From IMG/VR virus record IMGVR_UViG_3300023435_000009: a stretch of DNA of 64,000 bases. One strand, 5' to 3'. Of the stretch, positions 39,801 through 57,600 are shown in pieces. The position numbers and the translations under genes were made by a program. The DNA is from a virus (Duplodnaviria; Caudoviricetes). How positions within the stretch are numbered: position 1 is the first letter of the stretch; the number at the start of each line of letters is the position of its first letter. Under the pieces are notes generated by a model. It had not been told where the DNA came from, ran no database searches, and saw nothing but the letters and a program-made list of their open reading frames with translations.

Positions 39801-42302
39801 TTCGAGCTTTCCGCCACCGTAGGAACGAAGATCTCGGGGATGCAGTTCCTTCCCGTACAGGTTTCCGGGGCCGAGTACGGTTTGCCCCATGACAACTGCG
39901 TGGGCGTTGATGATGCAGCCCTTTCCATCTATGGGTTCCGGCGGCTGACCTTCAGGCCGCCCACGTCGTTGACTCATTTCCCTGCCGCCCCGGATAACGC
40001 TCAACCTGTGGTGTTCAACTCTGCGGGGGCACCCGGCGTGACGGACGGGGCCTTGGACAGGGTTGCGGGGTTCAACACCTTGATCCCCATGGTCTCTGCC
40101 CCGGAACCGGGGCATGAGTTCCTGCCCAGTCCAGCGACTCCGGTCTACCACTGGGTCGCACACACGTTGGACGTGCAGGCGTTTAACAGCCTGCTTCAGC
40201 TTTGGGACACCCTGAATGTGGCTGGTGGCTCCTACGGCGGCATCCATGGTGCGACGGGAGTCCGGTGCATCCTCCCTGGGACCGAGATGGCTATGACCAG
40301 TGAAAATGTCGGGGTGATGCTCCCAGGCTTCCGTGCCCAGGCAGGGATCTTCCTGGAGCCCTCCGTGCCTCGTGCCGGGTTGGATCTGGTTCCGGCAGTC
40401 AGTCACGTTCGGGTTGTTGACCAGGACCACAGTCTTCCTGACCCCACTCTTGCGGCAACGGATGATGTGCGAGAGATCTGGATGAGGAACGCTCATGACT
40501 ACTACCTGGGAGGTGGTGCTTCTACGCAACCGAACATCCCGGAAGAGGTCACCTTCATTGTGAGACGCATCCGTCGTTTTCACAACGTCGGGGGTTCTCC
40601 TACGAACCTGATGCCCCTGCGATATGCCTACGAGATCCGCCGAGGAATGATCACTGATTACACTGTGATGCCCAGCCAGATGTGCATCGTGCAGGCCAAC
40701 TCTTTCACAATGAACTGGGAATCGATCAAGCCCGCAGGGTCACCCAAAGCGAACGACGCTTGGAATGACGGTGCCACCTACCTGGGAACCAACCTGGGGC
40801 CGTTCAACAACGAGGACGTGAACGCCCACGCCGGGGACACCTTCCGGCTCCTGGATCGTTTCGGGGACGTAGTGGAGGAAGCCGAGATCAGTTCCGTGAG
40901 GGAAGGACATGAGTTGGTTCTTGTTCCTCCAGGGTTGCAACTCTATGACCCCTCTAACGGGACCGTGCGGTTCGAGATTTTCCTCCGGCACGCTCCGGTG
41001 CCCCATGAGCAGACCAACGAGCAACTCCTGGATGTCATTACTTCTCGGGCTGTCACACGCACGGACGCTACCTGGGGTGTGGCCTCAGAGTTGGGTGGTT
41101 ACGTCCCAGAGGTCACAGGTGGGGCCACCTATGCTGGTAATGTCAACAAGCTCTACGACGACCTGAACGCCCCAGGAACCGGGGGCCAGACCTTCGGGGC
41201 GTTGGGGGTACAGAAGGGTGATATCGTTGTGGTGGATCCCATCGGGTTGATTCCTCAGAACTTAGCGGGCGATCCCACAACGCAAGAGTTGGCGATGCGT
41301 CCGGTGGGGGACGATTCTGTAGACGTCAGGATCGGTGCCGGAGTGTATGTGCCTGGACGCCCGAACCCTCTGGATGACAACAGGGGCTTCTACAGGGTTC
41401 TCCAGGTGGTCGATTCGGTGACACCCCCCTACTTGCTGGTGAATCCGGTTACGGAATTCACGGGGACAGATGTCGCTCCCGTTGTGTTCGATCCTACGGA
41501 TGACACCCGAGCGTATGCGGTGTACCCCTCGATCCACGACTCTTCTTTGGCTGCGACTGGCGAGGAGGGGCAGATGGATCTTCGTCCGACGAGGGCGAGG
41601 AATCCTGCGAATGGTTCCTTCAAGAACTACCCCAGCGGACTCAGCAACCACTCGGTAAGGCCCTTCTCTTATCAGGTGATTCGTCCGACGCAGTTCTTCA
41701 CGGACGCCACCATTGACTTGGTCCTGTCCACTCGGGAACGGATGCTCTCCCTCATCGCTTTGATCAATCAAATTGGGCACACCAAGGGTGGCAGTTATTT
41801 CATCTTCCAACGGGACACCCACCTGTACGATGTGGGCAGCCCGACCGACCCGGAGTTGGGCCTCGGTGTGGCCTCTAACGACTACCTCATGTCCGTGGTG
41901 GGCCGGGTGGATGTGATGCCCTATGCCAATAACACGACCTGCTTGTCCCTTCTGGACAGGAGGTTCTGGATCCTGGACGAGAAGCTGGACTTCCTGACGT
42001 ATGATGCAGCCAGCGGGACGGGGATGAGAAGGGCGGGTCCAGGGGACACCCCATACACTGAGTACTCTACAGTGACGGGGAGCATGGTCCGCCCTGTGCT
42101 GCCAGACTTGGTAGACGATGTGCTGGATCAGTCTGAGAGGCTCCGGGACGTGCGGTACGTCTGGTTGGCCTACCGGACTCATCAGGTTCTGGGCACGCTT
42201 GCCTCACTGAGCCGCTTTGACGCTGAGTTACCCAAACGTCTTCAGGAACAGGAGCAGTATCTGCTCCTGAAGGAATCGATGGAGAAGGTCTCTGAAACTT
42301 GA
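30888..42302 (+). CDS. giant (3804 aa) virion structural protein, probably baseplate/fibre-anchoring
   Basis: Uninterrupted 11.4-kb ORF with phage-type GC3 bias, beta-rich composition, located in the baseplate module. Confidence 0.7.
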   Translation: MGFSFDGHVLRGARIAPSNAVTSGEPVTGVIRDPRSVPTAYTLKVGSPLGEPPTFVDAAADKYRAGILDAPGTTPVEYLVWAQNTASLSWVDDPSWWLETGTATYPTGTLSVTDVVAGETWTDGAAHLVVTDEGNRSLSRILAVVVARGDQDYDDDGWIDPDDVNPANHPGGQPRKGNAPYVTLYFEADEQSPTLGMAYLTDVQQTALAGGLSLRRGDYVVAVHYTLASSRFWWTRNDRYETRFGWDGQARRWAPYKGTAVKNLGAMVLDLDYTMSPKVNNLPVGTFLPGSSAAPDQYSMIRVGSVPGATGTPVGSVRVVADSDFEDYDFAANPCNAVMGQTGGKLAFNPEFATAHAGETIWYSYKGYSPTSDGIVGPMRLADATPLYLAPIPGPTDHPFIHFGSRNPLTPILVTTDAALASINTVDPGTVAVSLSTGKLRFAPEDVQRADPSTPLFDKYFLGEDVIYKGVALNSQPQPTRAPVALVDEAGAVATAQDDPLYIPDAVELPTEFALDDPRRGLGVSGILDAPDGTGGLPSQPGVAATVRPGGDTIGAQNLGRIRQVDDGVGESILFSREGAIITLEEVTLEADLPTMGFKVKASKAYVARERGVEGSLVVLGRSDRKSFGDNAVYFLQSSLTPATFTTDAVVYSRGRDIFRFTGDEVFYYAVDGTAYLWTPTLLLAAYPNNSYFTPEMVAASLQSDTLPLPPAGTATAVSGRVAIRGATSVEIGFGTDGEKDLSGCTALGLMPGWRAVNGVQNWLPDSGVTLGLPRSPSNMDRSSATPDYAAVDRVENIILSESVPPSPFTFLDNVPLQDIAGYDDGVFFTLQYLALNGDEIEVVNKPLLHYEDIIHRFGQRKFDWVEDSIALGVVDKTTTTLNLGVPSLVPETLLGIPEIAAGLLVAPDGGVYIFQDPDTDFVLPQDGVSGNVILVERFGSLVTYGSKGARLTDPTHFEDQSADFTQAKVGYRLKITSGDNTGSYLVEEILSSTQVRLAPAIPEESQIWMTWELFTGHTSDVYDPALVADMVYKDFQLLPEEPFIIRILHLAGLVPATPAEQEANRLQVDMGEAVELDRPISLRFGLEAVNLTNEATLTALRKVPMGTMANNLLTLPDVNSSRFSTEAFSVQVGRATFSHGAGDLVGVASFSSDPSGIEYLTADIVVGGVTTPKGRLKFGTTVLTSLTGAKVYYQEEFLGAALLVSGEAEFDPSDGWFNLSSADLTVHAGKRLYFVEQLETEGHRDVSINPMLGAFSPNVPLPRGAVVEVLYWRADLEGRRIGDQVVEFLPVFVRKEQAQLVAPNIYKFNHALEDTVFQDIEPSVWIGAMMQNFGQVDCVVDYPEDWNGAGRVTFVSKTVDATDPVTVTFAVYEAQGGERSYEASQKNIYRPPFFIKANQSRFGLRTDRTAEFEPGQMIRIGEDCFYIRSLKYFPLETDGSGDVTEVNIFPSTINEVGSRAPGNDLLNYITDKPLTTVVDPDGPTPVPTTAAAGFMSAIDLTQFPFESVVRGQKVVIFRGDLTEFAVPGHVIEIGGAPYTIGSSEITEDGTRTKITVTGSFHRAFDILAAPIVKISYRPVYPPNFMEFVGVGPVLDSETVELVLFGETLSNGEEAPGRTLVPDVEYHLDYTSGAVQLLWPPQAGLQPNQWLLLTFTKLRTLQPYLKDEVLVEPRFQASFLSVTTPSEANDRLGATLAATFTFSSPDSFYFRAVELTQFLSEAAQEAIRDINATSPAGGSIQISAGGTDNWQQGRFGLMGEKAHLSDLDRAARTFLGFYNDTVVAFEQIQETISGGFVGDRDGKFRFWVGYGKDYPTPGYEDAISGGLLSRFVWADAVNSERVLGAPAFLTLDDWVVAPDSVTLEDAEISGSFLGPNTLNIMQTIQGALVQNDVDDVVLLKLGKTHITGTGADPYYHFKAKGVFGRMSDQHQFSRIFPTRTKAFFRLYPGAGAQMEPGAFNPGVYTAGRDINGEWLKTTGEQIGQISNPVLGDIQGVDSIDLVERRARGRIWGYFPDGLPGGLFDGGASPPVPVACIIVTPLLLRDVPVDPETGYPDDTRFLSTVPPGDLGDAVAGDPELAVPGFEAGDQLGWGKPDGTELGAFCPTTVLMWGATEPTGLFVREVLYGCVITFQDYLAAPMALPEEVLVVDTPAHEYPLERGDTLMVVSPSGVAMQAPQVPDLTTAPTFQTFADSTVLAGLYRDGYDLGTKSDGQVIDKSLPSLQDHAYIPLKELAGQNVPEPTSSVEGILEFLYMNQNPLKVPALLGGWVDDSGDFSVPYIRTGNTEIDRFEDISVVVSEAISARSDTVPTEAVYPDEILSLNGVVNVVGDTPASLDVDADLFPVVPGPIVPGIGNARPYDLILVQEPALFEDSDFTTLAGYTLGPHGILSIGRAETIPGGTAVEPPRFVTHTAAPPAGLSPVTGDAVRYNLTNAMVFVDGIYPPDPQVGVPPAGVAVFEDTLAGITVLDFTSVPMALNDGITRGVGNLNDVYFAGNPITIRMIARPDPNVVAGPVGPNPLPSLTGGVEALRITLWQGMAFVWTYQDDFNLAPPIGVALGGPPIFGDNVVPVLPVSDNRQIIIPGLGIIPWGAVPPNTWFLPHTLTPGPLYTMIYGFEYSFDIDARGFLHWAPAAPIWGSLTAWVDEDRLTFHETCDLRYASERGFVHPLNPALDLETQLTVDEVRLGRDAATWYWSDVNARANGWTGAPIPFTFLMRVPPYVGEWQMAAGTVSERGSIRVMAFEGHDNVPIEGVTVASATVPSCDYPPNQTAEICSGVGVTSSRLNTWLTPAEVESSDCRLTAITPSSGSVGAVEKGDVLVINGSSNLTYPGTLYAGTYLVRHAVETLGGSYRAVAPTSTTGVGTGWCPVVYPTVLGYDNVTNELTVSDLAPAAGGPLVGGVNVGFPLPAAGTRVFVLISPAGLASFDELTFRGSVISAEYSGMAMVAGRGVFTVANWQDAMGTVITEAEFELSATVGTKISGMQFLPVQVSGAEYGLPHDNCVGVDDAALSIYGFRRLTFRPPTSLTHFPAAPDNAQPVVFNSAGAPGVTDGALDRVAGFNTLIPMVSAPEPGHEFLPSPATPVYHWVAHTLDVQAFNSLLQLWDTLNVAGGSYGGIHGATGVRCILPGTEMAMTSENVGVMLPGFRAQAGIFLEPSVPRAGLDLVPAVSHVRVVDQDHSLPDPTLAATDDVREIWMRNAHDYYLGGGASTQPNIPEEVTFIVRRIRRFHNVGGSPTNLMPLRYAYEIRRGMITDYTVMPSQMCIVQANSFTMNWESIKPAGSPKANDAWNDGATYLGTNLGPFNNEDVNAHAGDTFRLLDRFGDVVEEAEISSVREGHELVLVPPGLQLYDPSNGTVRFEIFLRHAPVPHEQTNEQLLDVITSRAVTRTDATWGVASELGGYVPEVTGGATYAGNVNKLYDDLNAPGTGGQTFGALGVQKGDIVVVDPIGLIPQNLAGDPTTQELAMRPVGDDSVDVRIGAGVYVPGRPNPLDDNRGFYRVLQVVDSVTPPYLLVNPVTEFTGTDVAPVVFDPTDDTRAYAVYPSIHDSSLAATGEEGQMDLRPTRARNPANGSFKNYPSGLSNHSVRPFSYQVIRPTQFFTDATIDLVLSTRERMLSLIALINQIGHTKGGSYFIFQRDTHLYDVGSPTDPELGLGVASNDYLMSVVGRVDVMPYANNTTCLSLLDRRFWILDEKLDFLTYDAASGTGMRRAGPGDTPYTEYSTVTGSMVRPVLPDLVDDVLDQSERLRDVRYVWLAYRTHQVLGTLASLSRFDAELPKRLQEQEQYLLLKESMEKVSET

Positions 42303-42327
42303 TAAGTGTTCAACGGTGCTTTAAGAT
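42299..42327 (+). promoter_or_regulatory. sigma70-type promoter in the element left end
   Basis: TTGATA (42299-42304), 17 nt, TAAGAT (42322-42327); GTCAT-gtgc-ATGAC hairpin at 42332-42345. Confidence 0.65.
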
Positions 42328-42368
42328 GTTGGTCATGTGCATGACTATCACGCAGGCAGAGGGGAAAA

Positions 42369-43577
42369 GTGCTTCTAGCTCATGAAATAAGGCTCCGTCC
42401 CTCCCGAACGCAGGAGGAATACTTTCGTCATGCCTGTGGTGTGGCGAGGTTCACGTACAACTGGGCGTTGGAACATTGGAAAAGCGCCTACGAGGCGGGA
42501 GAAAAACCTTCTGGATCTTCTCTCAAGAAACAGTTCAATGCTATCCGTCGTGAGAAGTTTCCCTGGACTTATGAAGTTCACAGGGACTGTACAGCCCAGT
42601 CTTTCACGCAACTCCAAAAGGCGTTCACGCATTTTTTCCATCGTATGAAAGCGGGTCGAAAACCAGGCTACCCCAAGTTTAAAAAACGAGGTGGGTGCAA
42701 GGACTCTTTCTACATAGCTAATGACCGATTCCGATTAGACAACAAACGTATCCACTTACCCAAAATAGGATGGGTCAGGTTGCGTGAAGTCCTACGTTTC
42801 GAGGGTATGATCACCAGTGCTATCGTCAAGCGTGTAGCTGACGCCTGGTTCGTTGTAGTACAGGTCGATGTCGGTGACTATCGACGTGACCGCATTGCCA
42901 ATAGTGAGGTCGGTGTCGATTTGGGTATCAGATCCTCTGCTACACTCTCCACCGGGGAGCATATTCAAGGACCAAAGGCCTTGAAAAAGAACCTGAGGAA
43001 GTTGCAACGGGAGTCCCGTTGGCATTCCCGCAAACAGAAGGGATCAGCAAATCGCCGTAAATCGACAATGAAATTGGCTCGATTGCACCGTCGGATCGGT
43101 TACGTCCGATCCGACTATCTGCACAAACTGAGTACAAGGCTCTGTCGTGAGAACCAAGCGATAGGGATCGAGGATTTGGCTGTACAGAACATGGTTCGTA
43201 ATAGGCGGTTGAGCCGCCACATCGTGGATGAGGGATGGGGGGGGTTTCGACGGCAGATCAATTATAAGGCGGTCATCTTTGATGACGTGGTCGTTGTTCA
43301 TGATCGTTTTTACGCTTCGTCGAAGACCTGTTTTTTGTGTTGTGAAAAGAGGGCTAAGTTAAGCCTATCCGAGCGTACCTTCAAGTGCGCCTGCGGTTGG
43401 GAAATTGACAGAGATGTCAATGCCGCTTTGAACTTACTACCGTGGGTTACACGGGAAGTTACGCTTGTGGAGAAGGAAGCGCTGGTTTTGGCATTAGCTG
43501 AAACGAAACTGCCTTTGATGAAGCAGGAACTAACCCCTACGCCTTTGTGCGTGGGGGAAAGGTATCAGAAGGCCTAG
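42369..43577 (+). CDS. tnpB: RNA-guided endonuclease TnpB
   Basis: N-terminal HTH (AHEIRLRP...ARFTYNWAL), RuvC-I VGVDLG, RuvC-II IGIEDL, Zn finger CxxC...CxCG, RuvC-III DRDVNAALNL; all three catalytic acidic residues present. Confidence 0.95.
   Translation: MLLAHEIRLRPSRTQEEYFRHACGVARFTYNWALEHWKSAYEAGEKPSGSSLKKQFNAIRREKFPWTYEVHRDCTAQSFTQLQKAFTHFFHRMKAGRKPGYPKFKKRGGCKDSFYIANDRFRLDNKRIHLPKIGWVRLREVLRFEGMITSAIVKRVADAWFVVVQVDVGDYRRDRIANSEVGVDLGIRSSATLSTGEHIQGPKALKKNLRKLQRESRWHSRKQKGSANRRKSTMKLARLHRRIGYVRSDYLHKLSTRLCRENQAIGIEDLAVQNMVRNRRLSRHIVDEGWGGFRRQINYKAVIFDDVVVVHDRFYASSKTCFLCCEKRAKLSLSERTFKCACGWEIDRDVNAALNLLPWVTREVTLVEKEALVLALAETKLPLMKQELTPTPLCVGERYQKA
43441..43572 (+). ncRNA. putative omegaRNA scaffold overlapping the tnpB 3' end (5' boundary approximate)
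   Basis: Follows the DVNAALNL codons; hairpins GTTTTGGC-atta-GCTGAAAC (43485-43504) and CCCCTACGC-ctttgt-GCGTGGGGG (43534-43557); 84% identical over 92 nt to the non-coding copy at 54578-54668. Confidence 0.7.
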
Positions 43578-43804
43578 TGGAGATCCCTAAAGAAATTCAG
43601 GACTTGCTGGACAAACTCGGGGTGGACCCTGGGGCCTGGGGTGAGATGGAAGGGCACGCTGCCACTCCTCCCCTGATGCAGCGTCAGGCTGAAACTCTCG
43701 TCAAGCTCCGCACCTTCCTGGAGACTATGGTGGCCCAGGATCAGGCCGCATTGTCGGGGCTGCATGAACAGTTGGCCCGACTGAAACACGGTGGGGGATC
43801 CTGA
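43577..43804 (+). CDS. small hypothetical coiled-coil protein
   Basis: GTG at 43577 overlaps the TAG stop (TAGTG); the listed start at 43547 lies inside the omegaRNA and is unlikely. Confidence 0.6.
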   Translation: MEIPKEIQDLLDKLGVDPGAWGEMEGHAATPPLMQRQAETLVKLRTFLETMVAQDQAALSGLHEQLARLKHGGGS

Positions 43805-46698
43805 TGGCGAACTCGTGGGGAACACTGACGTTTGAGATCCCGGACTTTCTGGATGACATCCGAAACGCAATCAACAGCGTGGCCGAATGGATGGTTGCGG
43901 TGTTGGACATCGCCCTGCTCGCTCTGAACTTCATCAAGGCGTTTCTGGTTGGCTTCCTCGATCCAATTATTGCATTGGTGCAGGCCCTCATTGATGAGAT
44001 CAACGCTCTTCTCCGGGACTTGAGGCAGTTAGGGTTATACCTGACGGGGGATTGGAACCTCTTGGAGGATCCCGACACGTTGAAGGGCGGCTTCCAGGAG
44101 TATGAGCGGAGGATGATCGCCCGCCTCACGGATAGGACGGATCCGTCACGCCCTGACGTTTCCGCAGCGACCACCGTCCTGTCCATGTTCTTCTATGTGT
44201 CCGTGGACCTGTCCGAGTGGGAGCGGCTTGACCGCACCATCAGGATGTTGCTCGCCTACTTCAAGCAGTTCCCCGCCCTGGCTAGTTCTCATCCTGCCGT
44301 AGCAATCACGGAGGTTCTGTACGGGGCATCCGCAGCGAATTTGATGGACTTCGGAGACATTGGGGCCTTTTTCACGAAGGAGAGTACACCTCCTGCACTG
44401 GCTCTGGTGAAGTGGCGGGTCGACAAAGCCTTCAAGGGTGATGCGTTTTTGCCCCCGATCTCCATTCCTCCAGGCGGCTTCATCGTTACGGTGTCCACGG
44501 TGCCCGAGGGCATCCCCATCGTGTATGACCGTCCTCAGGGGGACCAGGATAAGAAGAAGGTGCCGGGCACATCCACGTTGGCGCAGCCCCGAGAGTATGG
44601 GCCGGTGCTGATGTCCGATGGTCGTCCCCTCATTCTGTACGGTGGGGGGGAGATGATCTATCCGGTCCCTGCCTCTATGACTTACAACTGGGGGATCAAA
44701 GACGGGGCGTTGGTTGATGGGGCAACCCGAGTTTATGGTCTGCTGGGATCGGGGAGGACACCAATCCCAATCGACCTCCTGAAGAACGGGGACGACTACT
44801 ATCTCCAGCGGACCTTCTGGGTGTCCCCCAAGGCCGTTGGAGGGGCCTTTGCTACCGGGGAGTACTCCATCCTTCTGAAGGGTGAGGAAATGCCACGTGC
44901 AGCCCATGTCGTAGCCGACTCGGGTGGGGAACTTCAGTTCGTGGATGATGGCCCTGCTGCGACCCTTTACGTCCGGGTGGCGACCTGTTCCAAGGCCGTG
45001 GCCAACTCCGGGGCCTTCCGATATCAGTTTCAGGAGGGGACGAAGAGCATCACGGGGCAACCCATTCAGGTGGGGGTCAGTTCTGATGGGGTGGAGGAGG
45101 GCAAATCTCCCACGGATATCGGATCCTTCAGCAATCCCCAGCAGATCGTGTTTGCGAACACCAACACCAAGGAGTACCTGGATGCTCTGCGGGTGGCCCT
45201 CCTGGTGCTTGTGTTGGTGCGCCCCGACCTACAGCCGCTGGATGAGATTGAGGGGACGGTGTCTACCGAGACCTTCGAAAACCTCAAGTCCAGCAAAGTC
45301 ATCACCGAGGGGTTGGCCCTCGGCTACTGCGGGTTGGAGTCAGTTCAGCATCTGACGGGTGTGGTCTATGACCAGAAACTGTCCTACGCTGATGCCATGA
45401 AGGTGTCGGACGCTACCGTGTTGACTTTCCGTCAGGATCTCATTGCTCGGATCAACCTGGCAGCCCATGACATCTACAGCAAGACTGGCCCAATGCCCGA
45501 CGTTGAGGCTACCGTAGTCAGTGGAACCAAGTTCCTCCGCACGGCAACGTGGGGGGACATCCTAGATGCAGTTCATCCTGAGGTGACATCTGATGGGAAA
45601 CCTAGCGGCTGGGCTGCTTTCCTGGATCTGACACTGTGGGAGTCTCTGGAGAGTTCCGATCCGAAGATTGGTGTTGCTCGGAACCCTCTGTCCGTTCTTG
45701 GGGGGCTTGAGGATGTGGCACGGAGTCTGATGGGTAACCCCGATGTTACCCTGGATCGGGATCCCCACATGCAGGACGGGCTGGTAGATGCAAACGCTGG
45801 GAAGTGGGACAATTACAAATTCATGGAGATGGCTTTCGGGTCCAAGGAGGAACTCCAGACCTTCTTGAAGGAGTGCCCACCAGGGCTGCGGAGCATTTAC
45901 GAGCAGTGTGTCGTGCAACCTGACAATAAGGACATTGCCGTACCCGACGATTGGTTCCACCGGGTGGATACATCAGACATGGCTGAGAGGCACGTAGGTT
46001 CAGCGGATCTTTCCCCTGTGTTCTTTTATGGTCCCCCTATCCCCGACAAGATGATGTACTGTCGAGGGTTGTTCGTCAAATCAGATCTCGTGACGGCACA
46101 GGATGCCAGCAAGGGAAGAATCCTCCAACAGGCATCTCTTGCCCTGCGTGTGGCGGGGGCGGCAATTCGCAGACCCCTGTCCGATGGGGAGTGGCTGTTC
46201 GTTCGGTGGTTTGACACGATGCCCGGTTTGGAAGACTTCCTGGCTTCCCTGGCAAACTGGATGGAGGCAATCAGGGCATCCCTTCAGTCCATTATAGATA
46301 CGATCCGAAAGTACATCGAGTACCTTGAGGCCCGAATCGTGGACCTACAGCAGTTGATCCGGCGGATCAATGCACTGCTTCAGTCTATCCTGGGTTTCAC
46401 CTTCCAGATCCCCTCATGTTCCGTGTTGACGATGGTGTCCAATGGGACGGGCGGGGTTTTGTCTGACCTGATCACGGCGGACAACAAACCCAGCGACACG
46501 CCGTTGGCCTACGGGGGTGGTGTCGCAGTGGTGATTCCTCTGTTCCCCAGTTTCGTCCTGTTAGATTTGTTGTTGGCCTTTTGGCACCCCAAATCAGGGA
46601 AGCCAGATGGTCCCATGGGTGAGGATCCGACAACCGTGGAGGGGATCAACGGTGTTCCTGTTGTCCCATCAGATCCTGTTGTTCCTGATGTTTTGTAG
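43804..46698 (+). CDS. hypothetical virion-associated protein (964 aa) with terminal amphipathic helices
   Basis: TGATG coupling, phage codon bias, baseplate module; no family recognised. Confidence 0.6.
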   Translation: MANSWGTLTFEIPDFLDDIRNAINSVAEWMVAVLDIALLALNFIKAFLVGFLDPIIALVQALIDEINALLRDLRQLGLYLTGDWNLLEDPDTLKGGFQEYERRMIARLTDRTDPSRPDVSAATTVLSMFFYVSVDLSEWERLDRTIRMLLAYFKQFPALASSHPAVAITEVLYGASAANLMDFGDIGAFFTKESTPPALALVKWRVDKAFKGDAFLPPISIPPGGFIVTVSTVPEGIPIVYDRPQGDQDKKKVPGTSTLAQPREYGPVLMSDGRPLILYGGGEMIYPVPASMTYNWGIKDGALVDGATRVYGLLGSGRTPIPIDLLKNGDDYYLQRTFWVSPKAVGGAFATGEYSILLKGEEMPRAAHVVADSGGELQFVDDGPAATLYVRVATCSKAVANSGAFRYQFQEGTKSITGQPIQVGVSSDGVEEGKSPTDIGSFSNPQQIVFANTNTKEYLDALRVALLVLVLVRPDLQPLDEIEGTVSTETFENLKSSKVITEGLALGYCGLESVQHLTGVVYDQKLSYADAMKVSDATVLTFRQDLIARINLAAHDIYSKTGPMPDVEATVVSGTKFLRTATWGDILDAVHPEVTSDGKPSGWAAFLDLTLWESLESSDPKIGVARNPLSVLGGLEDVARSLMGNPDVTLDRDPHMQDGLVDANAGKWDNYKFMEMAFGSKEELQTFLKECPPGLRSIYEQCVVQPDNKDIAVPDDWFHRVDTSDMAERHVGSADLSPVFFYGPPIPDKMMYCRGLFVKSDLVTAQDASKGRILQQASLALRVAGAAIRRPLSDGEWLFVRWFDTMPGLEDFLASLANWMEAIRASLQSIIDTIRKYIEYLEARIVDLQQLIRRINALLQSILGFTFQIPSCSVLTMVSNGTGGVLSDLITADNKPSDTPLAYGGGVAVVIPLFPSFVLLDLLLAFWHPKSGKPDGPMGEDPTTVEGINGVPVVPSDPVVPDVL

Positions 46699-46707
46699 GA
46701 GATAATC

Positions 46708-47589: not shown

Positions 47590-47590
47590 G

Positions 47591-47605
47591 CGGTGTTTCC
47601 TCTAT
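47591..47605 (+). promoter_or_regulatory. putative late-promoter motif CGGT-N8-TAT
   Basis: CGGT gtttcctc TAT, 35 nt before the gp25-like start. Confidence 0.55.
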
Positions 47606-47639
47606 ATTTTAGATCCTGTGGCACCTTGATGGAGAGAGC

Positions 47640-48791: not shown

Positions 48792-51700
48792 TGGCGACAA
48801 CTCCCAAGTTCCTGGCCCCCGATGGGCAGTATCGGGAGAACTACGTTTTCACCACAGACGTCTCCTACCGCTTCTTCTCGGGGCAGATGGATGCGGACAC
48901 GGCGGACATGCAGGTTTCGCTTCGGGGCGGGGCCTTTTCGTCTAATCCTGATTACATCCAGTTCGAAGGTACGACCTTCACGATCCCGAATCCTTCAGCC
49001 TTCCCGGACGGACTCCAGCTTCTTCAGGGTGCCAACGTCATCGATGTCAAATCGGTATTGACGACGGGAGAGACGACAGCGGCGGGTGTCATTCGGGCGA
49101 ACCTGGCGGTTGACCGGGATGTGAAGGCTGAGGTGCTGGCTCCTTCCGGGATTTTCATCGAGCGTTTGGACCGCACAGTAAAGATCACGGTCACGGGTTT
49201 GGAGGACGAGGAGGTGACGGGGTACAACTTCTACGCCTCCGCCTTTCCCGGAGGCGGGATCACCGGGTACAAGAGGGTCAGCATCCAGCCTGTCATCTCC
49301 TATGACACAGAGGAGGTCTTGTCTCTTATCGGCATCCTAGACGTGGACATGGATGTGCCTCTGAACGATGATGGCACACCCCTAGCCAATCCTCTGCTTT
49401 TCCGCACCATGGGGATGCAGGTGAATCTTGCGGGCGACATCCTCCAGTCGGACTTTGACGAGAGTATTCGGATACCGGACAGCACGACCCATTTCCGCAC
49501 CTCTGTTGGGATAGACTCAGTTTCTCTCGTGAAGAAGTTCTCCTTCACACACAATCGAGCGGCACTGCCTACGGATGCGAAAAATCCAGCGGTTCCATAC
49601 AATGACTTCCAGGCCCTCCCCGATGAGGATCCCCTGTACTATGCGGTCACTGCCATCTACCTCATCGATGGTGTGGAGTACGAATCTCAGGTGTCCCAGG
49701 AGGTTGCGGGGGCACCTCTCATCGTGACCCCCCAGGTAGCGAACCTCCCGGCTGTTTCCCGGCAGCAGGTCGTGCGAGACACCACACTGGCGATCTTCCG
49801 GTCCCACCCCGAAGTGGACGTGAAGCCCGGCTCTTACCTCAGGGACACCTTCATCGACCCCTTCTCTACGGAGGCGGAACGTATCCGTTTCATCGTGGGG
49901 TTCCTCCAGGCGGGGCAGAGCTTCACCACGCTGCTGGCTATCGATGACCCCACTGGGTCGGGTACGTCGCTACCTGTGACACAGAGTCCGTACAAGATTG
50001 CCCTCAAGCAGGCGTTCTACCTGCAAGACACGGCATCGGTACAGAACCTGGTGGACAATGCTTTCGACCATCTGGCAGCCAGGCGAGGGGTTCAGCGGCG
50101 GGCTGGGTACCGTGCCCATGGTGAGGTGCTCTTCTATGTGACCAACCGACCGACCTCTACCCGCTTTATCCCGATTGGGACGATTGTGACGAGCGGTTCA
50201 GTGAGGTTCCGCACTACGTCCGCAGCCCGTATCTCACCCACAGGGACAGGGACGACCTACAGTCCTGCCACCGGACGCTGGACGACCCGAGCCTACGTCC
50301 AGGCGCTGGAGGCGGGGGAAGCAGGGAACCTGACGAGAGATCAGATCCGCACCGTTCAGAATGGCCCCACCGATGTACAGGTCACGAACCCGAACAACAC
50401 CTTCGGTGGTCGAAACACGGAGTCCAACTACGCCCTTGCGATTCGTGCAGACGGCGTATTGGCTTCGGTGGATTCGGGGACGTACAGGGGTCTCACTCAG
50501 GATGCCTCGGATGTGCCTGGGGTGCGTCAGGTGAACGTGGTAGAGGCAGGGCACACCCTCATGATGAGGGACTTGGATGTCACAACAGGCAGGCACTGGG
50601 GCGGCAAGGTGGATGTGTGGACCCGTGGAGACAGTAGTGCCACGCTCACCGACTCCTTTGCCTTCTCGTTCGAGTCGGTAATCGACGGACAGTTCGAGGC
50701 AGTGGGGGACATCGGAAACCTCAAGTTCCGGGCGATCAACTCCCGTGTGACCGAGGACTTCCCCATCATTGAGATGCTCAACATCCCTGACTGGGAGTTG
50801 GAGTTCAGGGACGAAACGAAGGGGACTGTGCTGGACCTGAGGGACGCTGAGATCATCCGACCGGATGGGTTGCAGCTTTCCGCCACCTACAATGATCCGA
50901 CGCTGTTGCACTATCTGGACGTGTTCCGAGGCTCCTACCGCTTCCGCACGAGTAACAAGTTCGTGTTCAGCCGTCAGCCCGTGGGCGAGATCAACTCCTT
51001 CTACAAGCTGCTGGCCTCGGGTGACAAGAGCGTCGTCAGCACCTCGGCATACAAGCTATTCCATCCAGGCGACCCAATGGTGCTGGGACGGTCCACAGAG
51101 GCTGGGGACTACATCCAGGTGGTGGAGCCTCTGGACGGGACACCTCCTGTGAACATTCCCTCCGGTGACCCCATCGTGATCACGGGGGAGAGTCACGTAC
51201 TCCTCTCCGGGCCTGAGTATCTGGAGAACCTCGGGATTAACCCATACACGGTCCACGTCTACAACTTTGACCGTTCCATCGAGTACAACGGTCCCTTCCA
51301 CTCTTCCTCAGTCAAGGATTACACCCTGGTAGAGGAGGTGGATGAGACTCCCGTTGCCTTTGTCCCGGTTACGGGCGGGCGGTTGTTGGAAGGGATGCAA
51401 GTCATCGTTGACTATCAGCACGACGAAAACTACTCGGTGGAGTACATGATCAACGCCGTGGTTCAGGCCGTGCAGAACGCAGTGGACCTGAGCAGGCACG
51501 CCACCGCTGACGTGGTGTCCAAGGAGTCCATCCCGGCGGGTGTGAATATTTCCGGGACGGTTGTCATCCTCAGGAACCAGCAGTCCTCGGTGGTGGACGG
51601 CAACATCCGCACAGAGTTGGGTCGAGTGTTCGGGGCAATGACCCTGGCCCAGCCTCTCCGTCAGAGCGACGTCATCAGTGCAATCGAAACGGTGCAGGGA

Positions 51701-52258
51701 GTGTCCTACGCTGTAGTTCCTCTGACCCATCTGGCCAGGCAGGACGGTTCTACTGTGGTGCGGGAAGAGGTTGTGACCTCGCAGGGAGGCACAGATTGGG
51801 TAGACATTTCCTCCGTTTCAACTCACGCCTGGCATGACGATGCTGTGACGATCTACTTGGTCACCAACCCCCTGTACAGTAACACCACGGATGGGGGCGG
51901 CGACTACAACGAATTCCGAGGCGTTTTCATTGACGACGTTCCCCAGACCCTCTTTGACGTTGTGCCTCAATTCGACGGGGCACCGCTTAAGGGCGTGGCC
52001 AACGGGGCGTGCATCATCGGTGACGATGGGATGAGCATCCCAGGGTACCTTGGGGCCACGGCCAACAGGATCTTGCTGGCACTCCCTACGGGGGTGAATC
52101 CTTCGGACGGTACCTTGAAGGTGACCTACATTGCCATGGACGACAGCGGGGTGAAGAACATCGAACCGGGGCCTGCGGAGTATCTGGTGTTGGGTGACCT
52201 GGAGTTTACCTATGATGAGGACCGGGACTTCTCGGCTCTGGTGACAGGGCGGAGCTAA
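48791..52258 (+). CDS. baseplate J-like (gp6-like) wedge protein
   Basis: DVKPGSYLRDTFIDP, FDHLAARRGVQRR, ALEAGEAGNL, TFGGRNTESNYAL and VPGVRQVNVV are Baseplate_J-type motifs. Confidence 0.88.
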   Translation: MATTPKFLAPDGQYRENYVFTTDVSYRFFSGQMDADTADMQVSLRGGAFSSNPDYIQFEGTTFTIPNPSAFPDGLQLLQGANVIDVKSVLTTGETTAAGVIRANLAVDRDVKAEVLAPSGIFIERLDRTVKITVTGLEDEEVTGYNFYASAFPGGGITGYKRVSIQPVISYDTEEVLSLIGILDVDMDVPLNDDGTPLANPLLFRTMGMQVNLAGDILQSDFDESIRIPDSTTHFRTSVGIDSVSLVKKFSFTHNRAALPTDAKNPAVPYNDFQALPDEDPLYYAVTAIYLIDGVEYESQVSQEVAGAPLIVTPQVANLPAVSRQQVVRDTTLAIFRSHPEVDVKPGSYLRDTFIDPFSTEAERIRFIVGFLQAGQSFTTLLAIDDPTGSGTSLPVTQSPYKIALKQAFYLQDTASVQNLVDNAFDHLAARRGVQRRAGYRAHGEVLFYVTNRPTSTRFIPIGTIVTSGSVRFRTTSAARISPTGTGTTYSPATGRWTTRAYVQALEAGEAGNLTRDQIRTVQNGPTDVQVTNPNNTFGGRNTESNYALAIRADGVLASVDSGTYRGLTQDASDVPGVRQVNVVEAGHTLMMRDLDVTTGRHWGGKVDVWTRGDSSATLTDSFAFSFESVIDGQFEAVGDIGNLKFRAINSRVTEDFPIIEMLNIPDWELEFRDETKGTVLDLRDAEIIRPDGLQLSATYNDPTLLHYLDVFRGSYRFRTSNKFVFSRQPVGEINSFYKLLASGDKSVVSTSAYKLFHPGDPMVLGRSTEAGDYIQVVEPLDGTPPVNIPSGDPIVITGESHVLLSGPEYLENLGINPYTVHVYNFDRSIEYNGPFHSSSVKDYTLVEEVDETPVAFVPVTGGRLLEGMQVIVDYQHDENYSVEYMINAVVQAVQNAVDLSRHATADVVSKESIPAGVNISGTVVILRNQQSSVVDGNIRTELGRVFGAMTLAQPLRQSDVISAIETVQGVSYAVVPLTHLARQDGSTVVREEVVTSQGGTDWVDISSVSTHAWHDDAVTIYLVTNPLYSNTTDGGGDYNEFRGVFIDDVPQTLFDVVPQFDGAPLKGVANGACIIGDDGMSIPGYLGATANRILLALPTGVNPSDGTLKVTYIAMDDSGVKNIEPGPAEYLVLGDLEFTYDEDRDFSALVTGRS

Positions 52259-52488
52259 TGACAATCATCACCGTCAGATGGCGGGAAGGTGGCGAACGCA
52301 TGGAGAAGGCCGTGGAGAGGCTGCCCTGGACGGGTCACATCCTGGACGAGGTGATCTTTCACCGACCCCCCACCGTTTTGGAGTTGGCTGCCTTGACGCA
52401 GCATCTCAGGGGGCCGAGGACCCGTTGGAAGATGCTGACGGATAAGGGGTGGCGTGGGGGCTCAATCTGGGGGGCACGGGATGGCTGA
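52258..52488 (+). CDS. small hypothetical ORF between the J-like and I-like genes
   Basis: Fills the gap exactly (TAATG overlap with J, 8-nt overlap with the next gene); no family recognised. Confidence 0.45.
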   Translation: MTIITVRWREGGERMEKAVERLPWTGHILDEVIFHRPPTVLELAALTQHLRGPRTRWKMLTDKGWRGGSIWGARDG

Positions 52489-53899
52489 TCCTACGGACAA
52501 AAACCTCCTGCCAGGACTGCTGGCGCAGAATCCGTCCCTCTGGGAAAAGGACTCCCAGGATCATAAACGGAAGGTGCAGGAGCAGGTAGAGCGGGTGATG
52601 ACGGTGTTCCGCCAACTCATCCCCAGCAACTATGTTAGCAATGTGCCTGGTCCTTTCTACATGACGCAGTTCCAGTCGGCAGCGGAGCAGATTGCCGACT
52701 TCCAGATCACGGCCCAAGAGGTCTTTGCTGACTCGTTCTATGATTTCACCCGTTCCGAGGTGCTCTATCAGATCCTTGGTGATCTGGTGTTCCCCGACGC
52801 CCGGACCTATGGGTATCCTGAGCTTGAGGGCGACCTGACCTACAGAGTGTTCCTCCAACGGATGGTGGTCCTTCTCCTTCGGGGAGCCACGACCTCGGTG
52901 CAGAAGGACGGTGTAGAGTTGCTCACGACTGCCACCGTCCAGGTGTTGGAGCGGGGCATAGAGGCCCGCAAACTCCTTGTGAGGGATGCGGACGGCACAC
53001 TTCGCCCGACCTCCGCCTGGGCTGAAGCCGACGCTTTCACTTTTGAGATCAATATCAGCCAAGTGGCCGGAACTGTTGAGATTGACGGGGTCTCCGTTCC
53101 GCTGTACGGCTTCCCTGAGGACCCCTTCAAACTCCAGCGGAACGTCTATCTGGTGCTCCGGGCGCTGAAACCCGCCCACGCCCTTTATGACTATCGCCAT
53201 CTCTTCCTGGACACCTTCGGGGAGATGTTCTCTGATGTTCACCGGGTCGACATGTCCTCCTACTACTACCAGGACTTCAGGCGGTACTGTCTCGGGGCCA
53301 AGAGGGTAGCAGGAACGGCGGGGATCACCTGGGCGAACAAGACCCTGTTCAGCGATCACCAGAGGGACTTCACGGGGATTGATCCCACGGCAATGCTGAC
53401 TATCCTCTCCGGTCTGAACTCAATCCATGTTGGGGGCACTGAAGGGACACCCGCTTCCCAGGATATGTGCCACGTCGGTCGGTACGAGGTTCTGGAAGTT
53501 AAGTTTTTTGTTCAGGACGATCAGGTTGCCCGGCAGTACACCACGTTTCCCACGGGGCTGACGGGGTCGGCAACGGTGTCCGGGGACGAATTAGAGGACA
53601 CGGCGCAGCTTTCCTGGCACACGATCCAGGAGGGTGAAATTCTGACCCTCCTGAGTGGCCCCAATGCAGGCTCCTATCGACTCAAGACTGTGTTGGGACA
53701 GTACGGGGGACCAGCGGGTAGCACATTGATAGCAGCACCGGCTACAGGGGTGAAGGTTGCCCCCAGCATCCTCCGGCTTCGTCGTCGGATGGGGGTCAGT
53801 GCTACTGGGCAGTCCTATGAGGTTCAGGTGGACAGGTTGGGAGTGCAGGAACCTCGTTTGGCTAGTCAGGAAGATGCCACCGTACAGTTTCTCATCTAA
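52481..53899 (+). CDS. baseplate wedge/tail protein I-like (gp7-like)
   Basis: Follows J; FYDFTRSEVLYQILG...YRVFLQRMVVLLLRGAT...VLRALKPAHALY resembles the P2 gpI/gp7 N-domain. ATG 52481 preferred to GTG 52454. Confidence 0.7.
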   Translation: MADPTDKNLLPGLLAQNPSLWEKDSQDHKRKVQEQVERVMTVFRQLIPSNYVSNVPGPFYMTQFQSAAEQIADFQITAQEVFADSFYDFTRSEVLYQILGDLVFPDARTYGYPELEGDLTYRVFLQRMVVLLLRGATTSVQKDGVELLTTATVQVLERGIEARKLLVRDADGTLRPTSAWAEADAFTFEINISQVAGTVEIDGVSVPLYGFPEDPFKLQRNVYLVLRALKPAHALYDYRHLFLDTFGEMFSDVHRVDMSSYYYQDFRRYCLGAKRVAGTAGITWANKTLFSDHQRDFTGIDPTAMLTILSGLNSIHVGGTEGTPASQDMCHVGRYEVLEVKFFVQDDQVARQYTTFPTGLTGSATVSGDELEDTAQLSWHTIQEGEILTLLSGPNAGSYRLKTVLGQYGGPAGSTLIAAPATGVKVAPSILRLRRRMGVSATGQSYEVQVDRLGVQEPRLASQEDATVQFLI

Positions 53900-53905
53900 G
53901 CCGTC

Positions 53906-53920
53906 CATTGATGCGCCTAT
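53906..53920 (+). promoter_or_regulatory. putative late-promoter motif CATT-N8-TAT
   Basis: CATT gatgcgcc TAT, just after the I-like stop codon. Confidence 0.5.
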
Positions 53921-53991
53921 AAATTCGGTAGGGTGAGGTCTAGTCTGAAAGAAGTTGGGTTTGGGGTTACAGACTGTGGAGAGGGGACACA

Positions 53992-54516
53992 ATGGTTTTA
54001 CGTGAGAAAGTGCTCAAGTTGGCCCACGACCGGCCAGAATTTCGGAAGTACCTTGTTCCTTTGTTGAGAAGGTGTGCTGCTTCGACTCCCTCCTACCAGG
54101 AGTACGTGGACAAGAAGAGACAGAAGAATGAGCGTCCTCTCTCCAAGGATAAGTGGGAGAGGAGGGTGCTGCGCAACCGGGGGATCTCTGAGGGCCACGA
54201 AGAGTGGAAGAAGGACGAAGCGGCCAAGAAGGACCTGAAGAAGACGGATAAGTCCGACACCAAACGGAAGGACCGAAAGGAATTGTCCGATAAAGTTGTG
54301 AAATCCAGGGGTCTCAAGGATAAGGATCTTGAAGAAGTTCAGGCCTATCAGAAGAAGAATGTGAAGCCGGGTCAGAAGGGCAAATTGAAGCCCTGGGAAC
54401 TCAAAGCTAAGTTCTTGGCAAAGGCCAGCCCTGAAACGAAAGAACGGATGAAGGGGCTGAACAACCAGGAGTTCATGGCGGTTCTCAATGCTATCATGGA
54501 TGAGGACGAGGGTTAA
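53992..54516 (+). CDS. small highly charged (Lys/Glu/Arg-rich) hypothetical protein
   Basis: GGAGAGGGG SD; 174 aa; N-terminal LREKVLKLAHDRPEFRKYLVPLL helix. Confidence 0.7.
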   Translation: MVLREKVLKLAHDRPEFRKYLVPLLRRCAASTPSYQEYVDKKRQKNERPLSKDKWERRVLRNRGISEGHEEWKKDEAAKKDLKKTDKSDTKRKDRKELSDKVVKSRGLKDKDLEEVQAYQKKNVKPGQKGKLKPWELKAKFLAKASPETKERMKGLNNQEFMAVLNAIMDEDEG

Positions 54517-54518
54517 CC

Positions 54519-54533
54519 CAGTTTTTAGCCAAT
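54519..54533 (+). promoter_or_regulatory. putative late-promoter motif CAGT-N8-AAT
   Basis: CAGT ttttagcc AAT directly upstream of the AGGAG RBS that the mini-element displaced. Confidence 0.45.
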
Positions 54534-54545
54534 GAGGTAGGAGAA

Positions 54546-54668
54546 CGTTTCTAGGGTTCTTGACAGTGTGTAACGGGGCGCTGGTTTCGGCATTAGCTGA
54601 AACGAAACTGTCCTCGTTGGAGTAGGGGCTAATTCCTACGTTTTTGTGCGTGGGGAAAGGTAGCAGAA
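54546..54668 (+). mobile_element. 123-bp non-autonomous miniature derivative of a TnpB/IS607-like element (left end plus 3' omegaRNA/right end)
   Basis: 54541-54579 aligns to the TnpB left end 42282-42319; 54578-54668 aligns to 43479-43570 (77/92 identical); flanked by AGGTAGGAGAA and AGGTAGCAGAA. Confidence 0.85.
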
Positions 54669-54671
54669 GCC

Positions 54672-57600
54672 ATGGCAGCGGTAATCGTCAGTAAACTATA
54701 CACCTCTCCGGTTGGCCCCCAGGTTGGACCCACCGAGACGGGGATCAGCAGGAACGATCTACAAAAGGGCTACCGTGTGGTCTGTGAGTCACTTAACGTG
54801 GCGACGACCTACAGTTGGTCCCTTGTGTTCACTCCGGATTCCCCTGGCCCCACAGCGGCCTCTGGGAACGACTTCACAGGTACTCCGTCCACTGCGGGCC
54901 TGCTGCCCCCCGAGGGTAGCACGTCGGCCACGTGCAAGTTTGATGTAGACTGGGACGGTTCCTACCTCATCCGTCTCATCACTGATGCGGGCACGGTAGA
55001 CGAGGACTCTCAGTTCATCCGGCTTCGATTGATGACTACCTTCGGTGATCTGAAGCTCATCGCCGCCGGGGAGCGTCGGGACCAAGGTGGTGTGGTTCCT
55101 GTGGACGCAGCGACCGAAGGGTGGTCGGATGTCCAGAACCAGAACATCCAGCGGCTGATGCTGATGGTGCGCCGGGGAATGACTACGGGCCGGACGCTCT
55201 ACGTTGATCCCAACAGGGGGCGGACCTTCCTTACCTCTCAGGCGTCCGACGATACTACAAATATCGTGCGTGTCCCCGGACCGGACTCCGCAGCGAGAGA
55301 TGAGAGTGGGATGCGGATGTCGGCGGTAGGGTGTGGGGACTTCTCCTCCATCTCTGAAGCCATCAGCTACGCTTCCGCTGCTGTCGCCAGGGGGGAACCG
55401 GCCTTGGCTGCAGGGGATCCCTACATCATCAATGTGGCCCCTGGGACTTACAATGAGGACTTAGCGCTGGTCCCCTTCGTTTATTTGATGGGGGCTGGGG
55501 GGTACTACAATCGGGTCACTACAGTTGATGCCACCACTACAGGTTCCCACACGTTTACGGCAACAGGTCCCGGTGACCTCTGTGTTTTGATAGGGATGCA
55601 CCTGACGAATAGTCTCGTTACAACCGGGGCGGTTCTGGAAAACAACGGTGGTATTCTCATCCTTCAGGACGTTGCAGTCCAGCAGGAAGGTGTTTCCGGA
55701 ACGCAGGGGCCTGCTCTTCATGTTGATCAGGCTTTTGAGTCTACGGTCTGGGCTGACCAATGTCTCTTGAGTTCAGAGGGCTCTCCTGCAACTCAATATG
55801 CGCTCGTCCTTGAGAACCTTGCTGGAGCAGTCACCTTTACAGGGGGGATGATCGTTGGGCCATCCGCTGTGTTCTGTCTCTCGGATCCTGTCGCAGGAGC
55901 ATCTACGCTGGCTGTAGACATCCGCAGTGCTGTGATTACAGCAGGGGTCGGAGGTACTGCCTATCAGGGATACCCCAGCAGTACGACGTTTGCTACCTCT
56001 GAGATTGGGGGGCCTGTGGTGCTTAGTTCCGGGGCTTACGGGGTGGGGGCCTACACCCACGATGTGGAACTGGAACTCAACGCTGTTTCCTTTGATGTAG
56101 CTCTGCTGGTTGCCCCTGTGTCAGTGACCCCGACTGGTACGACCGGATCCTGCACTTTCAACCACGGGGACGTTGTTGTCCGTGGAGCTACCGCAGGGGA
56201 TTATCTGGATGTCCCCACGGCCCCTGGAAACGTGCCTACGGTGGAGCCCAGTTCTCAGAGCTACGCCAACTATTTTGACAACAACTTCACCAACCCTCTG
56301 ACGACGCTTTCGCTGAACAGTCTTCAGCAGATCCCGGTGGGTAACGTCCAGGAGGCCCTTACGCTCCTGACTCGTTACGTGCTGCCCGTCACGGGAGCAC
56401 CGTTCTACTCCCTGGAGTCTGCATATAACGGCCTCGCTTCCTTGAACCCCCCGGTAGCGGGTGATGGGTTGGGCCGGACCATCGAGGCGGGTGCCGGAGC
56501 TGTTCAGATCACGGCGGCACTTGCCCCGGTGGTACCCTACGAGCCGCTCCTGTTGGGCGGTCTTCAGGTAGAGGGTCAGGTTGATATAGGCCCCCTGATG
56601 GGGGATGGCCTGGGCTCCGAGTTTACGGTCGACCCCAACACCTTTGGGATGGGTGTGATCCTTAAGATGGGTCGCAATGTCTTCCCCAACGTGACGGGGC
56701 TGAATTCGTTGGCTCTGGTTCAGGTGGGTTCCGATCCTTCTTTGCCTTTCGACTACACTGTCCACACGAGGAACAGTGCTGGTCTACTCCTCAGGCCGGG
56801 GGCTGCAAGTCTGGTTGCAGGATCCGGGGTAGGGGCACTTGGCCCTGGGGGCGGTGACGTTCATCTACAAGCGGGTTCCGCAGGAAACCCCGCACCCACT
56901 ACGGGTTCTGTGTGGGTTGCCCCCGGTGCCCACACTGTTACTAACGGACGTCTAGAGTTGGCGGACCCCTCAACGGCGACGGCCCCCACTTTGTTGGCTG
57001 CCGGACCTTTTGTTCCTGGTCCCGCCACAGGCACCTTCTACATTCAGACCATCAATGGTGTGGAGGAGCACACGATCCTGGCGGCGGACACCATTGGCAC
57101 TTTGGTGGCCCGAATCAACACCACTTCCCTGAGTTTGGCGGCTACAGCCGTCATGGGGACCACACTAAGACTCACGGGTCTGAACACGGGGCCGACCGCC
57201 TTCATCCTCTACATGACGGATGATCAGGGCGGGGCACTCAACACAATGATGGGAGACTTGGTCCCCCCGGCGGCGACATATGTTGCAGGGAGCTACGTCA
57301 ATCATGTGGGTCTGAGTTGCATTGGAGCCAATCTGTTCCATGTTCACGGTACAGTCTCGGCAGATGTGCCCATTATTGCCGTTCCTGGTGGCTATCAGCC
57401 AATGCTCAATCCTGGAGCGCTTGTTGGACCAGGAATCGCTATTGTTGGGGTGGATAACACGGCAGGTACTGTTACGGTGACACTTCCAGTAGCTCCTGCT
57501 GTGGCGACACAGCTTACGGTCAAGCACGAGGCGGGTGTGTTGGCTCCACTTACTCCTGTGAACATCGTTCCGGGGGCAGCCAATATCGACGGTGTCGCTG

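Follow-up and report, generated by a model that had tools for sequence, protein, structure and literature searches.

We analysed a 64,000-nucleotide stretch (the window; IMG/VR record IMGVR_UViG_3300023435_000009) of a ~528-kb huge phage from salt-lake metagenomes. The window is a portion of the phage's virion-gene region (sheath initiator, baseplate J) and contains two insertion elements, which we call E1 and E2. Both are transposase-less derivatives of IS607 elements with an AG core, and each was inserted directly after a GGAG that lay just upstream of a start codon.

GGAG is the core of the bacterial Shine-Dalgarno (SD) sequence. We consider the following explanation, taken as a whole, to be very probable. 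E1 and E2 would be non-autonomous members of an AG-core IS607 lineage, and a serine transposase supplied in trans would insert them directly after GGAG. Their right end, GCAG, would be the target changed at -3, which in IS607 keeps TnpB off its own end. Insertions at GGAG words inside genes would be purged, so that most survivors would lie between an SD sequence and a start codon. Each insertion would shift the SD sequence upstream and leave a weaker signal before the gene, whose expression would then rely on read-through transcription plus coupling to tnpB or, for E2, on the purine-rich tip of the right end.

Boundaries and family membership

The 109-kb record of this phage contains one transposon right end in two copies and one tnpB. 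Across 26 aligned relatives, the right end terminates in an invariant CAG (C at -3 in 26/26), with G at -4 in 24/26 and A at -5 in 26/26. In bacterial genomes with multiple copies, similarity between copies starts directly after GGAG, which is the left boundary, and the left ends of the relatives as well as those of E1 and E2 have TCT six bases in. The CAG terminus and this onset of similarity place E1 at 42285-43568 and E2 at 54544-54666. An earlier annotation made from the sequence alone (the first-pass annotation) had reported both elements, with boundaries that were off by a few bases.

We searched the ends of E1 and E2 for a terminal inverted repeat and found none. Across 21 relatives, only AG is common to both junctions and there is no target duplication; one side of the AGAAGG repeat at E1 is host DNA. 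The core is AG (from GGAG on the left and CAG on the right) and not the GG of the IS607 family, while the right end GCAG differs from the target GGAG by a single change at -3, as it does in that family.

We classify E1 and E2 as IS607 derivatives because relatives in the same clade carry an IS607 transposase (L148 and L120, above the curated cut-off of NF033518) and because of the placement of the E1 protein in a tree of TnpBs. There, E1 falls inside a clade of solely CAG-ended elements (20 rows, SH-aLRT 96), separate from the GG-ended elements. The E1 TnpB matches NF040570 with 274 bits (cut-off 100) and IS607_TnpB with 230 bits, below the cut-off of 350. It is IS607-related and has a zinc finger and an intact RuvC domain, whose D184, E268, and D349 are invariant in the alignment. 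Neither E1 nor E2 contains TnpA, and both are too small to house it, so these are non-autonomous derivatives rather than autonomous IS607 members.

There was no group I intron, as an Rfam scan of 42200-55000 gave only a weak match to RAGATH-18, and no DEDD recombinase of the IS110/IS900 type, as E1 has only TnpB domains and E2 has no gene. No excised allele was present among the contigs of four sequencing runs, although contigs lose rare variants.

Target motif and placement before start codons

To characterise the family, we started from 240 loci and called right ends by pattern and by eye. A start was scored if an ATG that opens an open reading frame (ORF) of at least 50 codons lay 4-12 nt 3' of the right end. 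Such a start follows 21 of 32 CAG-ended elements from outside the cyanobacteria and only 11 of 92 GG-ended elements (Fisher p 1.6e-8, which is too small because the counts take in related copies that are not independent). Once GTG and TTG are included, the CAG-ended count rises to 25/32, and the distances peak at 6-9 nt. The background is 6% for random positions, 12% for GGAG words in the flanks, and 16% for AGGAG words in the flanks. Among further copies in whole genomes, which we located with an RNA model of the right end, 13 of 21 lie before a start. The enrichment is seen in phages and in several phyla, so placement relative to start codons is non-random, as the first-pass annotation had anticipated. 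Cyanobacterial CAG-ended elements (loci L150-L183) form a separate clade in which just 1 of 18 precedes a start; with that clade included, the count is 22/50. Scans of viral contigs with single proteins and DNA patterns returned nothing or chance matches.

Among the GG-ended elements (L169, L240, L082, L217, L168, and others), starts at 7-12 nt are slightly overrepresented (11/92, versus 1/92 in a control window), perhaps due to a sub-clade that lands in GGAGG-type sites.

When we mapped the targets, 18 of 21 ended in GGAG and the remaining three were one base off, with A at -5 in 10/21 and A at -6 in 10/21. This agrees in part with ISFba1 (PDB 8IAZ; PMC11061315): AGGAG is the measured motif of IS607 TnpBs from 18 of 22 tested strains (PMC11061315), which is close to our GGAG target. 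The E1 TnpB is also similar to 8IAZ (~400 amino acids, E 3e-49), and E1 has a candidate RAGATH-18-like motif at its right end. In contrast to ISFba1, the Rfam score of E1 is weak (24 bits, where gathering is 44.9) and A is at -5 in only 10/21 targets, so the target logo is nGGAG rather than the AGGAG of the RAGATH-18/ISFba1 group; the motif of the E1 TnpB itself is only predicted. Of the residues by which ISFba1 TnpB contacts the motif, the equivalents of Y117, N61, and N121 are kept in E1, and those of K80 and K83 are not.

Could a four-nucleotide motif explain the placement before starts? This phage has 1293 GGAG words, of which just 29 lie before a start. Among those where an insertion might be tolerated (intergenic or within the final six codons of a gene), 29 of 61 precede a start, or 19 of 32 for AGGAG, using crude gene calls. 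GGAG targeting plus the loss of in-gene insertions thus predicts 48-59%, and no sensing of translation signals is needed. Alternatively, the transposase could actively seek out genuine translation-initiation regions for their accessible, transcribed, or AG-rich context, over and above the short word and selection. This would account for the 66% of survivors that precede a start, compared to 12-16% of GGAG or AGGAG words in the flanks, and for the enrichment of A at -5 and -6 (10/21 each). However, selection by itself predicts 48-59%, one third of the copies have no nearby start, and A at -5 and -6 is expected of any SD sequence. We therefore consider an active preference to be unlikely, and the SD-like sites that the first-pass annotation described as preferred are indeed enriched, but the motif and selection suffice.

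Several points weigh against our explanation. The lower figure of 48% comes from a crude gene caller that is biased towards starts with an SD sequence. In the family test, the right ends were set by pattern and by eye, with nine calls discarded; the starts are ORF-opening codons without homology support; and the relatives are not independent. The target of E1 is TGGAG, whereas ISFba1 requires the complete AGGAG, and the loss of the K80/K83 contacts is also a departure from ISFba1. No serine recombinase (PF00239) or transposase was found in the 109 kb covered of the ~528-kb genome. Finally, site 2 matches the right end at 5/5 additional positions beyond GGAG, and the motif does not explain this.

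The two insertion sites

The features at site 1 are all on the + strand:
42281-42284 (+): GGAG target of E1, which in the empty allele is the SD sequence of the 75-amino-acid gene, 8 nt before GTG
42285-43568 (+): E1, a tnpB-only IS607-derived element of 1284 bp, without transposase
42299-42327 (+): sigma-70-like promoter in the left end of E1 (1 found versus 0.1 expected)
42369-43577 (+): tnpB, 402 amino acids, with RuvC residues D184, E268, and D349
43450-43568 (+): right end of E1 and predicted guide-RNA scaffold, with a RAGATH-18-like core at 43464-43529
43569-43584 (+): host spacer and start of the 75-amino-acid gene; predicted guide, matching the empty site only
43577-43804 (+): conserved phage gene of 75 amino acids downstream of E1

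Empty orthologous sites of both loci in related phages have GGAG 5-8 nt ahead of the start. At site 1, deleting E1 in silico gives ATGGAG, 8 nt, and GTG, and the GGAG falls within the last codons of a gene for a protein of 3804 amino acids. In one related phage with an empty site (L268), 8 nt separate ATGGAG from the ATG of a 76-amino-acid homolog. In another (L342), AAGGC and ATGA come next after ATGGAG, and MEKA* is the end of the upstream protein. GGAG at 8 nt before GTG is a real SD sequence, so site 1 is also an insertion between an SD sequence and a start. The original SD sequence is GGAG at 42281-42284, and it is now stranded to the left of E1. The first-pass annotation had instead taken AGAAGG at the right end to act as the SD sequence for GTG. 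Given the boundary at CAG, the AAGG before GTG is host DNA, and it is also present before the start in an empty relative.

Other details of that annotation hold up. The 3804-amino-acid protein now ends in MEKVSET*, and would end in MEKA* without E1, as in L342. It terminates at a TGA (42300-42302) in the -35 box of E1, and each of the three frames meets a stop in the first 40 nt of the element, so the replacement stop needs no special explanation. Also as reported, tnpB reads through the right end of E1, takes its last codons (AAG GCC TAG) from the host, and stops on a TAG that overlaps the next GTG. This is possible because E1 has T at 43565, a position that is G in 24 of 26 aligned ends. The codon in frame there reads TAT, where E2 and several relatives have TAG, so we presume a change from TAG to TAT. 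The 75-amino-acid gene, probably coupled to the stop of the 3804-amino-acid gene before E1 arrived, would now be coupled to the stop of tnpB.

The closest relative of the E1 TnpB (65-68%) is in L026 (3860-5296), between a phage primase and the next gene. This element has a small zinc-ribbon ORF where tnpA would be, and its tnpB likewise passes the right end, overlapping the host start by 8 nt.

The match of the E1 right end to RAGATH-18 is full-length yet weak (24 bits, E 0.96). By analogy with known systems (PMC11061315; bioRxiv 10.1101/2023.11.20.567912), 43569-43584 would be the guide. We found no second target for it in the 109 kb (the best candidate has 6 mismatches in 16). Nor did we find an E1-free allele in the lake population: 12 of 12 contigs carry E1, and a contig from a divergent strain (X20) overlaps both of its ends. 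X20 is ~99% identical around E1 and ~89-91% identical in parts of the baseplate gene (51190-51460) and the gene downstream of E2 (54665-55500), which suggests mosaic exchange.

The features at site 2 are also on the + strand:
53947-53953 (+): probable decayed original SD sequence of the 1004-amino-acid gene (from comparison with a single contig)
53954-54543 (+): cassette of ~590 bp with a 174-amino-acid gene (53992-54516), absent from three relatives
54540-54543 (+): GGAG target of E2, the SD sequence of the 1004-amino-acid gene before E2 arrived, 5 nt before ATG
54544-54666 (+): E2, a 123-bp miniature in which ~34 bp of left end adjoin the terminal 89 bp of a right end
54672-57686 (+): conserved phage gene of 1004 amino acids downstream of E2, without a Pfam match

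The right-end part of E2 is identical to E1 at 75 of 90 positions. Neither the -10 box nor the 5' strand of the guide scaffold is present in E2; its tnpB frame is closed at 54623-54625, and it has no long ORF of the kind seen in the bacterial miniatures described below. We considered whether E2 might be a working guide, but this is unlikely, as the 5' pairing strand is absent and the conserved 3' motif is altered. A terminator-like hairpin in E2 is no more than expected by chance.

E2 sits between AGGAG, which is the 3' end of the cassette, and a 5-nt spacer plus ATG. X20 (one contig) skips 53937-54664, and its leader is GAAGGAG, AAGCC, and ATG. In two more distant phages, AGGAG precedes the homolog of the 1004-amino-acid gene by 5 nt, and both E2 and the 174-amino-acid gene are missing. 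The region around 53947-53953 matches the leader of X20 at 11 of 15 nt, with four transitions. Because the relatives have a plain leader and a decayed SD sequence seems to lie upstream of the cassette, a single SD sequence was probably hit twice, first by the cassette and then by E2. A contig with a variant 174-amino-acid gene retains E2.

The first-pass annotation had noted a 10/11 match between two 11-mers (54535-54545 and 54658-54668), the second of which ends 3 nt before the ATG at 54672. This is correct, but the last two bases belong to the element on the left and to the host on the right, which leaves a match of 8/9 between target and end, and it is a one-off. The right-end-like 9-mer before E2 is part of the cassette and not of the ancestral leader, which is plain AGGAG in the relatives. 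The 9-mer may be an ordinary SD sequence, or it could be the tip of an older right end in which C changed to G at -3, restoring both an SD sequence and a target, and the cassette could have arrived with or into that older element. The cassette does start just past the decayed SD sequence and end in a right-end 9-mer with only -3 changed, and this 9-mer context occurs once among 440 GGAG words. But the right-end profile matches nothing in the cassette, the 5' end of the cassette is unlike a left end, a homolog of the 174-amino-acid gene occurs without insertion sequence (IS) ends, neither GAGGT nor AGGAG is unusual as an SD word, and we saw no tnpB element with a GGAG end. Both parts of this alternative, taken jointly, seem doubtful to us.

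The 174-amino-acid protein is lysine-rich, and one distant homolog (L271) is in a different context. We tried 53960-53985 as a relic of the 5' part of the scaffold, which the right-end profile does not support. Upstream of the leader, at 53907-53921, ATTGAT-5 nt-TATAA is conserved in L024 and L272 and is probably a phage late promoter. The junction at 52258-52488 is also variable: the short ORF after the baseplate J gene is absent in L024 and replaced by a 266-amino-acid gene in L272. As for the genes that flank E1 and E2, the first-pass annotation inferred low-cost landing sites in essential operons; our comparison shows only that they are syntenic in relatives. Elsewhere in the window, there is a perfect 21-nt inverted repeat (11942-11962 and 63517-63537, 51.5 kb apart), and an 862-amino-acid ORF contains three tandem 21-nt repeats (11868-11930).

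Translation of downstream genes and known IS elements

In 16 of 16 relatives, pairing of the SD sequence to the 16S tail is weaker with the element present (mean -8.7 to -3.2 kcal/mol). The energy changes from -6.4 to -4.1 kcal/mol at E1 and from -8.5 to -6.8 kcal/mol at E2; the median for 18 genes in the window is -7.6 kcal/mol. Real right ends score about the same as shuffled ends (p 0.32; in a second set of 25, p 0.04, with an effect of 0.45 kcal/mol). The purine-rich tip of E2, ~10 nt from the ATG, is a partial substitute for an SD sequence, as a local feature and not as a family rule.

These results bear on the first-pass annotation's proposal that the likeness of the targets to the right end extends over 9-11 nt and that the right end supplies a replacement SD sequence, so that insertion is nearly free. 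In its favour, the match at site 2 is 8/9, a 6-bp direct repeat occurs at site 1 (and AAGG follows only 5 of 440 GGAG words), and the ends of this sub-lineage are purine-rich, which keeps -6.8 kcal/mol at site 2. Across 21 sites, however, the likeness between target and right end is in slight excess at -9 to -5 (30/105 versus 21 expected, p 0.03) and absent 3' of the junction (23/84 versus 23 expected). E1 matches at 1/5 upstream positions, the SD sequence is weaker in 16/16, and many right ends are T-rich (GATAGCAG). The likeness amounts to the four-nucleotide GGAG/GCAG rule, which is the known arrangement in IS607, where the target is the TnpB motif and C at -3 prevents self-cutting. We consider the proposal mostly refuted for the family and very improbable overall.

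Translational coupling to tnpB is a likelier repair than rebuilding of the SD sequence, and we offer it as a lead. The tnpB stop is within 11 nt of the right end, or beyond it, in 21 of 33 CAG-ended elements versus 22 of 92 GG-ended elements. In 18 of 26 it lies no more than 17 nt from the host start, usually 10-17 nt before it, and in E1 tnpB overlaps the start. Miniatures without tnpB from two bacterial genomes (L284, L288, and L291 in G001; L289, L292, L295, L298, L301, L303, L306, and L309 in G003; about six types) are 248-352 bp long. In 11 of 11, an ORF of 67-99 codons covers 68-98% of the length and stops 3 or 6 nt short of the right end. It is possible that these ORFs act as a translational relay. 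With full shuffling, each such ORF is improbable (P 0.005-0.06), though far less so if the inherited 3' part is kept (P 0.01-0.57). L292 and L295 each have an ATG 10 nt beyond the SD sequence that they displaced.

A stronger version is that the AG-core lineage evolved as a parasite of SD sequences that replaces them by coupling, with tnpB or the relay ORF selected to stop just before the host start and the change from TAG to TAT in E1 selected after insertion for exact coupling. We view this version as tentative, with somewhat less than an even chance of being correct.

Canonical members of the family (IS607, IS1535, ISXfa1, CboIStron) resemble E1 and E2 in lacking inverted repeats and target duplications and in having two shared core bases. 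In the canonical members, the target is the nuclease motif and the end differs from it at -3 (bioRxiv 10.1101/2023.11.20.567912 and 10.1101/2023.08.09.552727); here the change at -3 is seen as well, and the target would likewise be the motif. Most members have a GG core (2026 review, PMC13565253), whereas here the core is AG and the GGAG target coincides with the SD sequence. E1 and E2 also lack TnpA and, unlike IStrons, have no intron that hides the insertion.

Insertions of IS elements between an SD sequence and a start codon are on record (PMC2942039, citing Doran 1997 and Inglis 2003), with the same landing place and the same need to keep the downstream gene translated. Those elements have an unrelated recombinase and no TnpB, while here a four-nucleotide motif is shared with an RNA-guided nuclease. 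They are reportedly IS900-type elements of the IS110 family from mycobacteria, which E1 and E2 resemble in landing place only.

The individual pieces, namely the AGGAG motif of IS607 TnpB and the targeting of SD sequences by unrelated IS elements, are already published. Searching the text of PMC11061315 for Shine-Dalgarno sequences, ribosomes, or insertion sites gave nothing, and we found no paper that links the IS607 motif to the SD sequence, in a search that covered subscription journals thinly.

Our analysis gives the published AGGAG motif of IS607 TnpBs a biological reading: the motif is the SD sequence. In a genome that is ~97% coding, an element that targets GGAG lands at gene boundaries, and the sites guarded by the TnpB nuclease would be ones that mutation cannot easily remove. 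With its AG core, the lineage is an exception to the rule of GG ends among IS607 elements. The coupling, if true, would be a translation-level counterpart to the self-splicing of IStrons.

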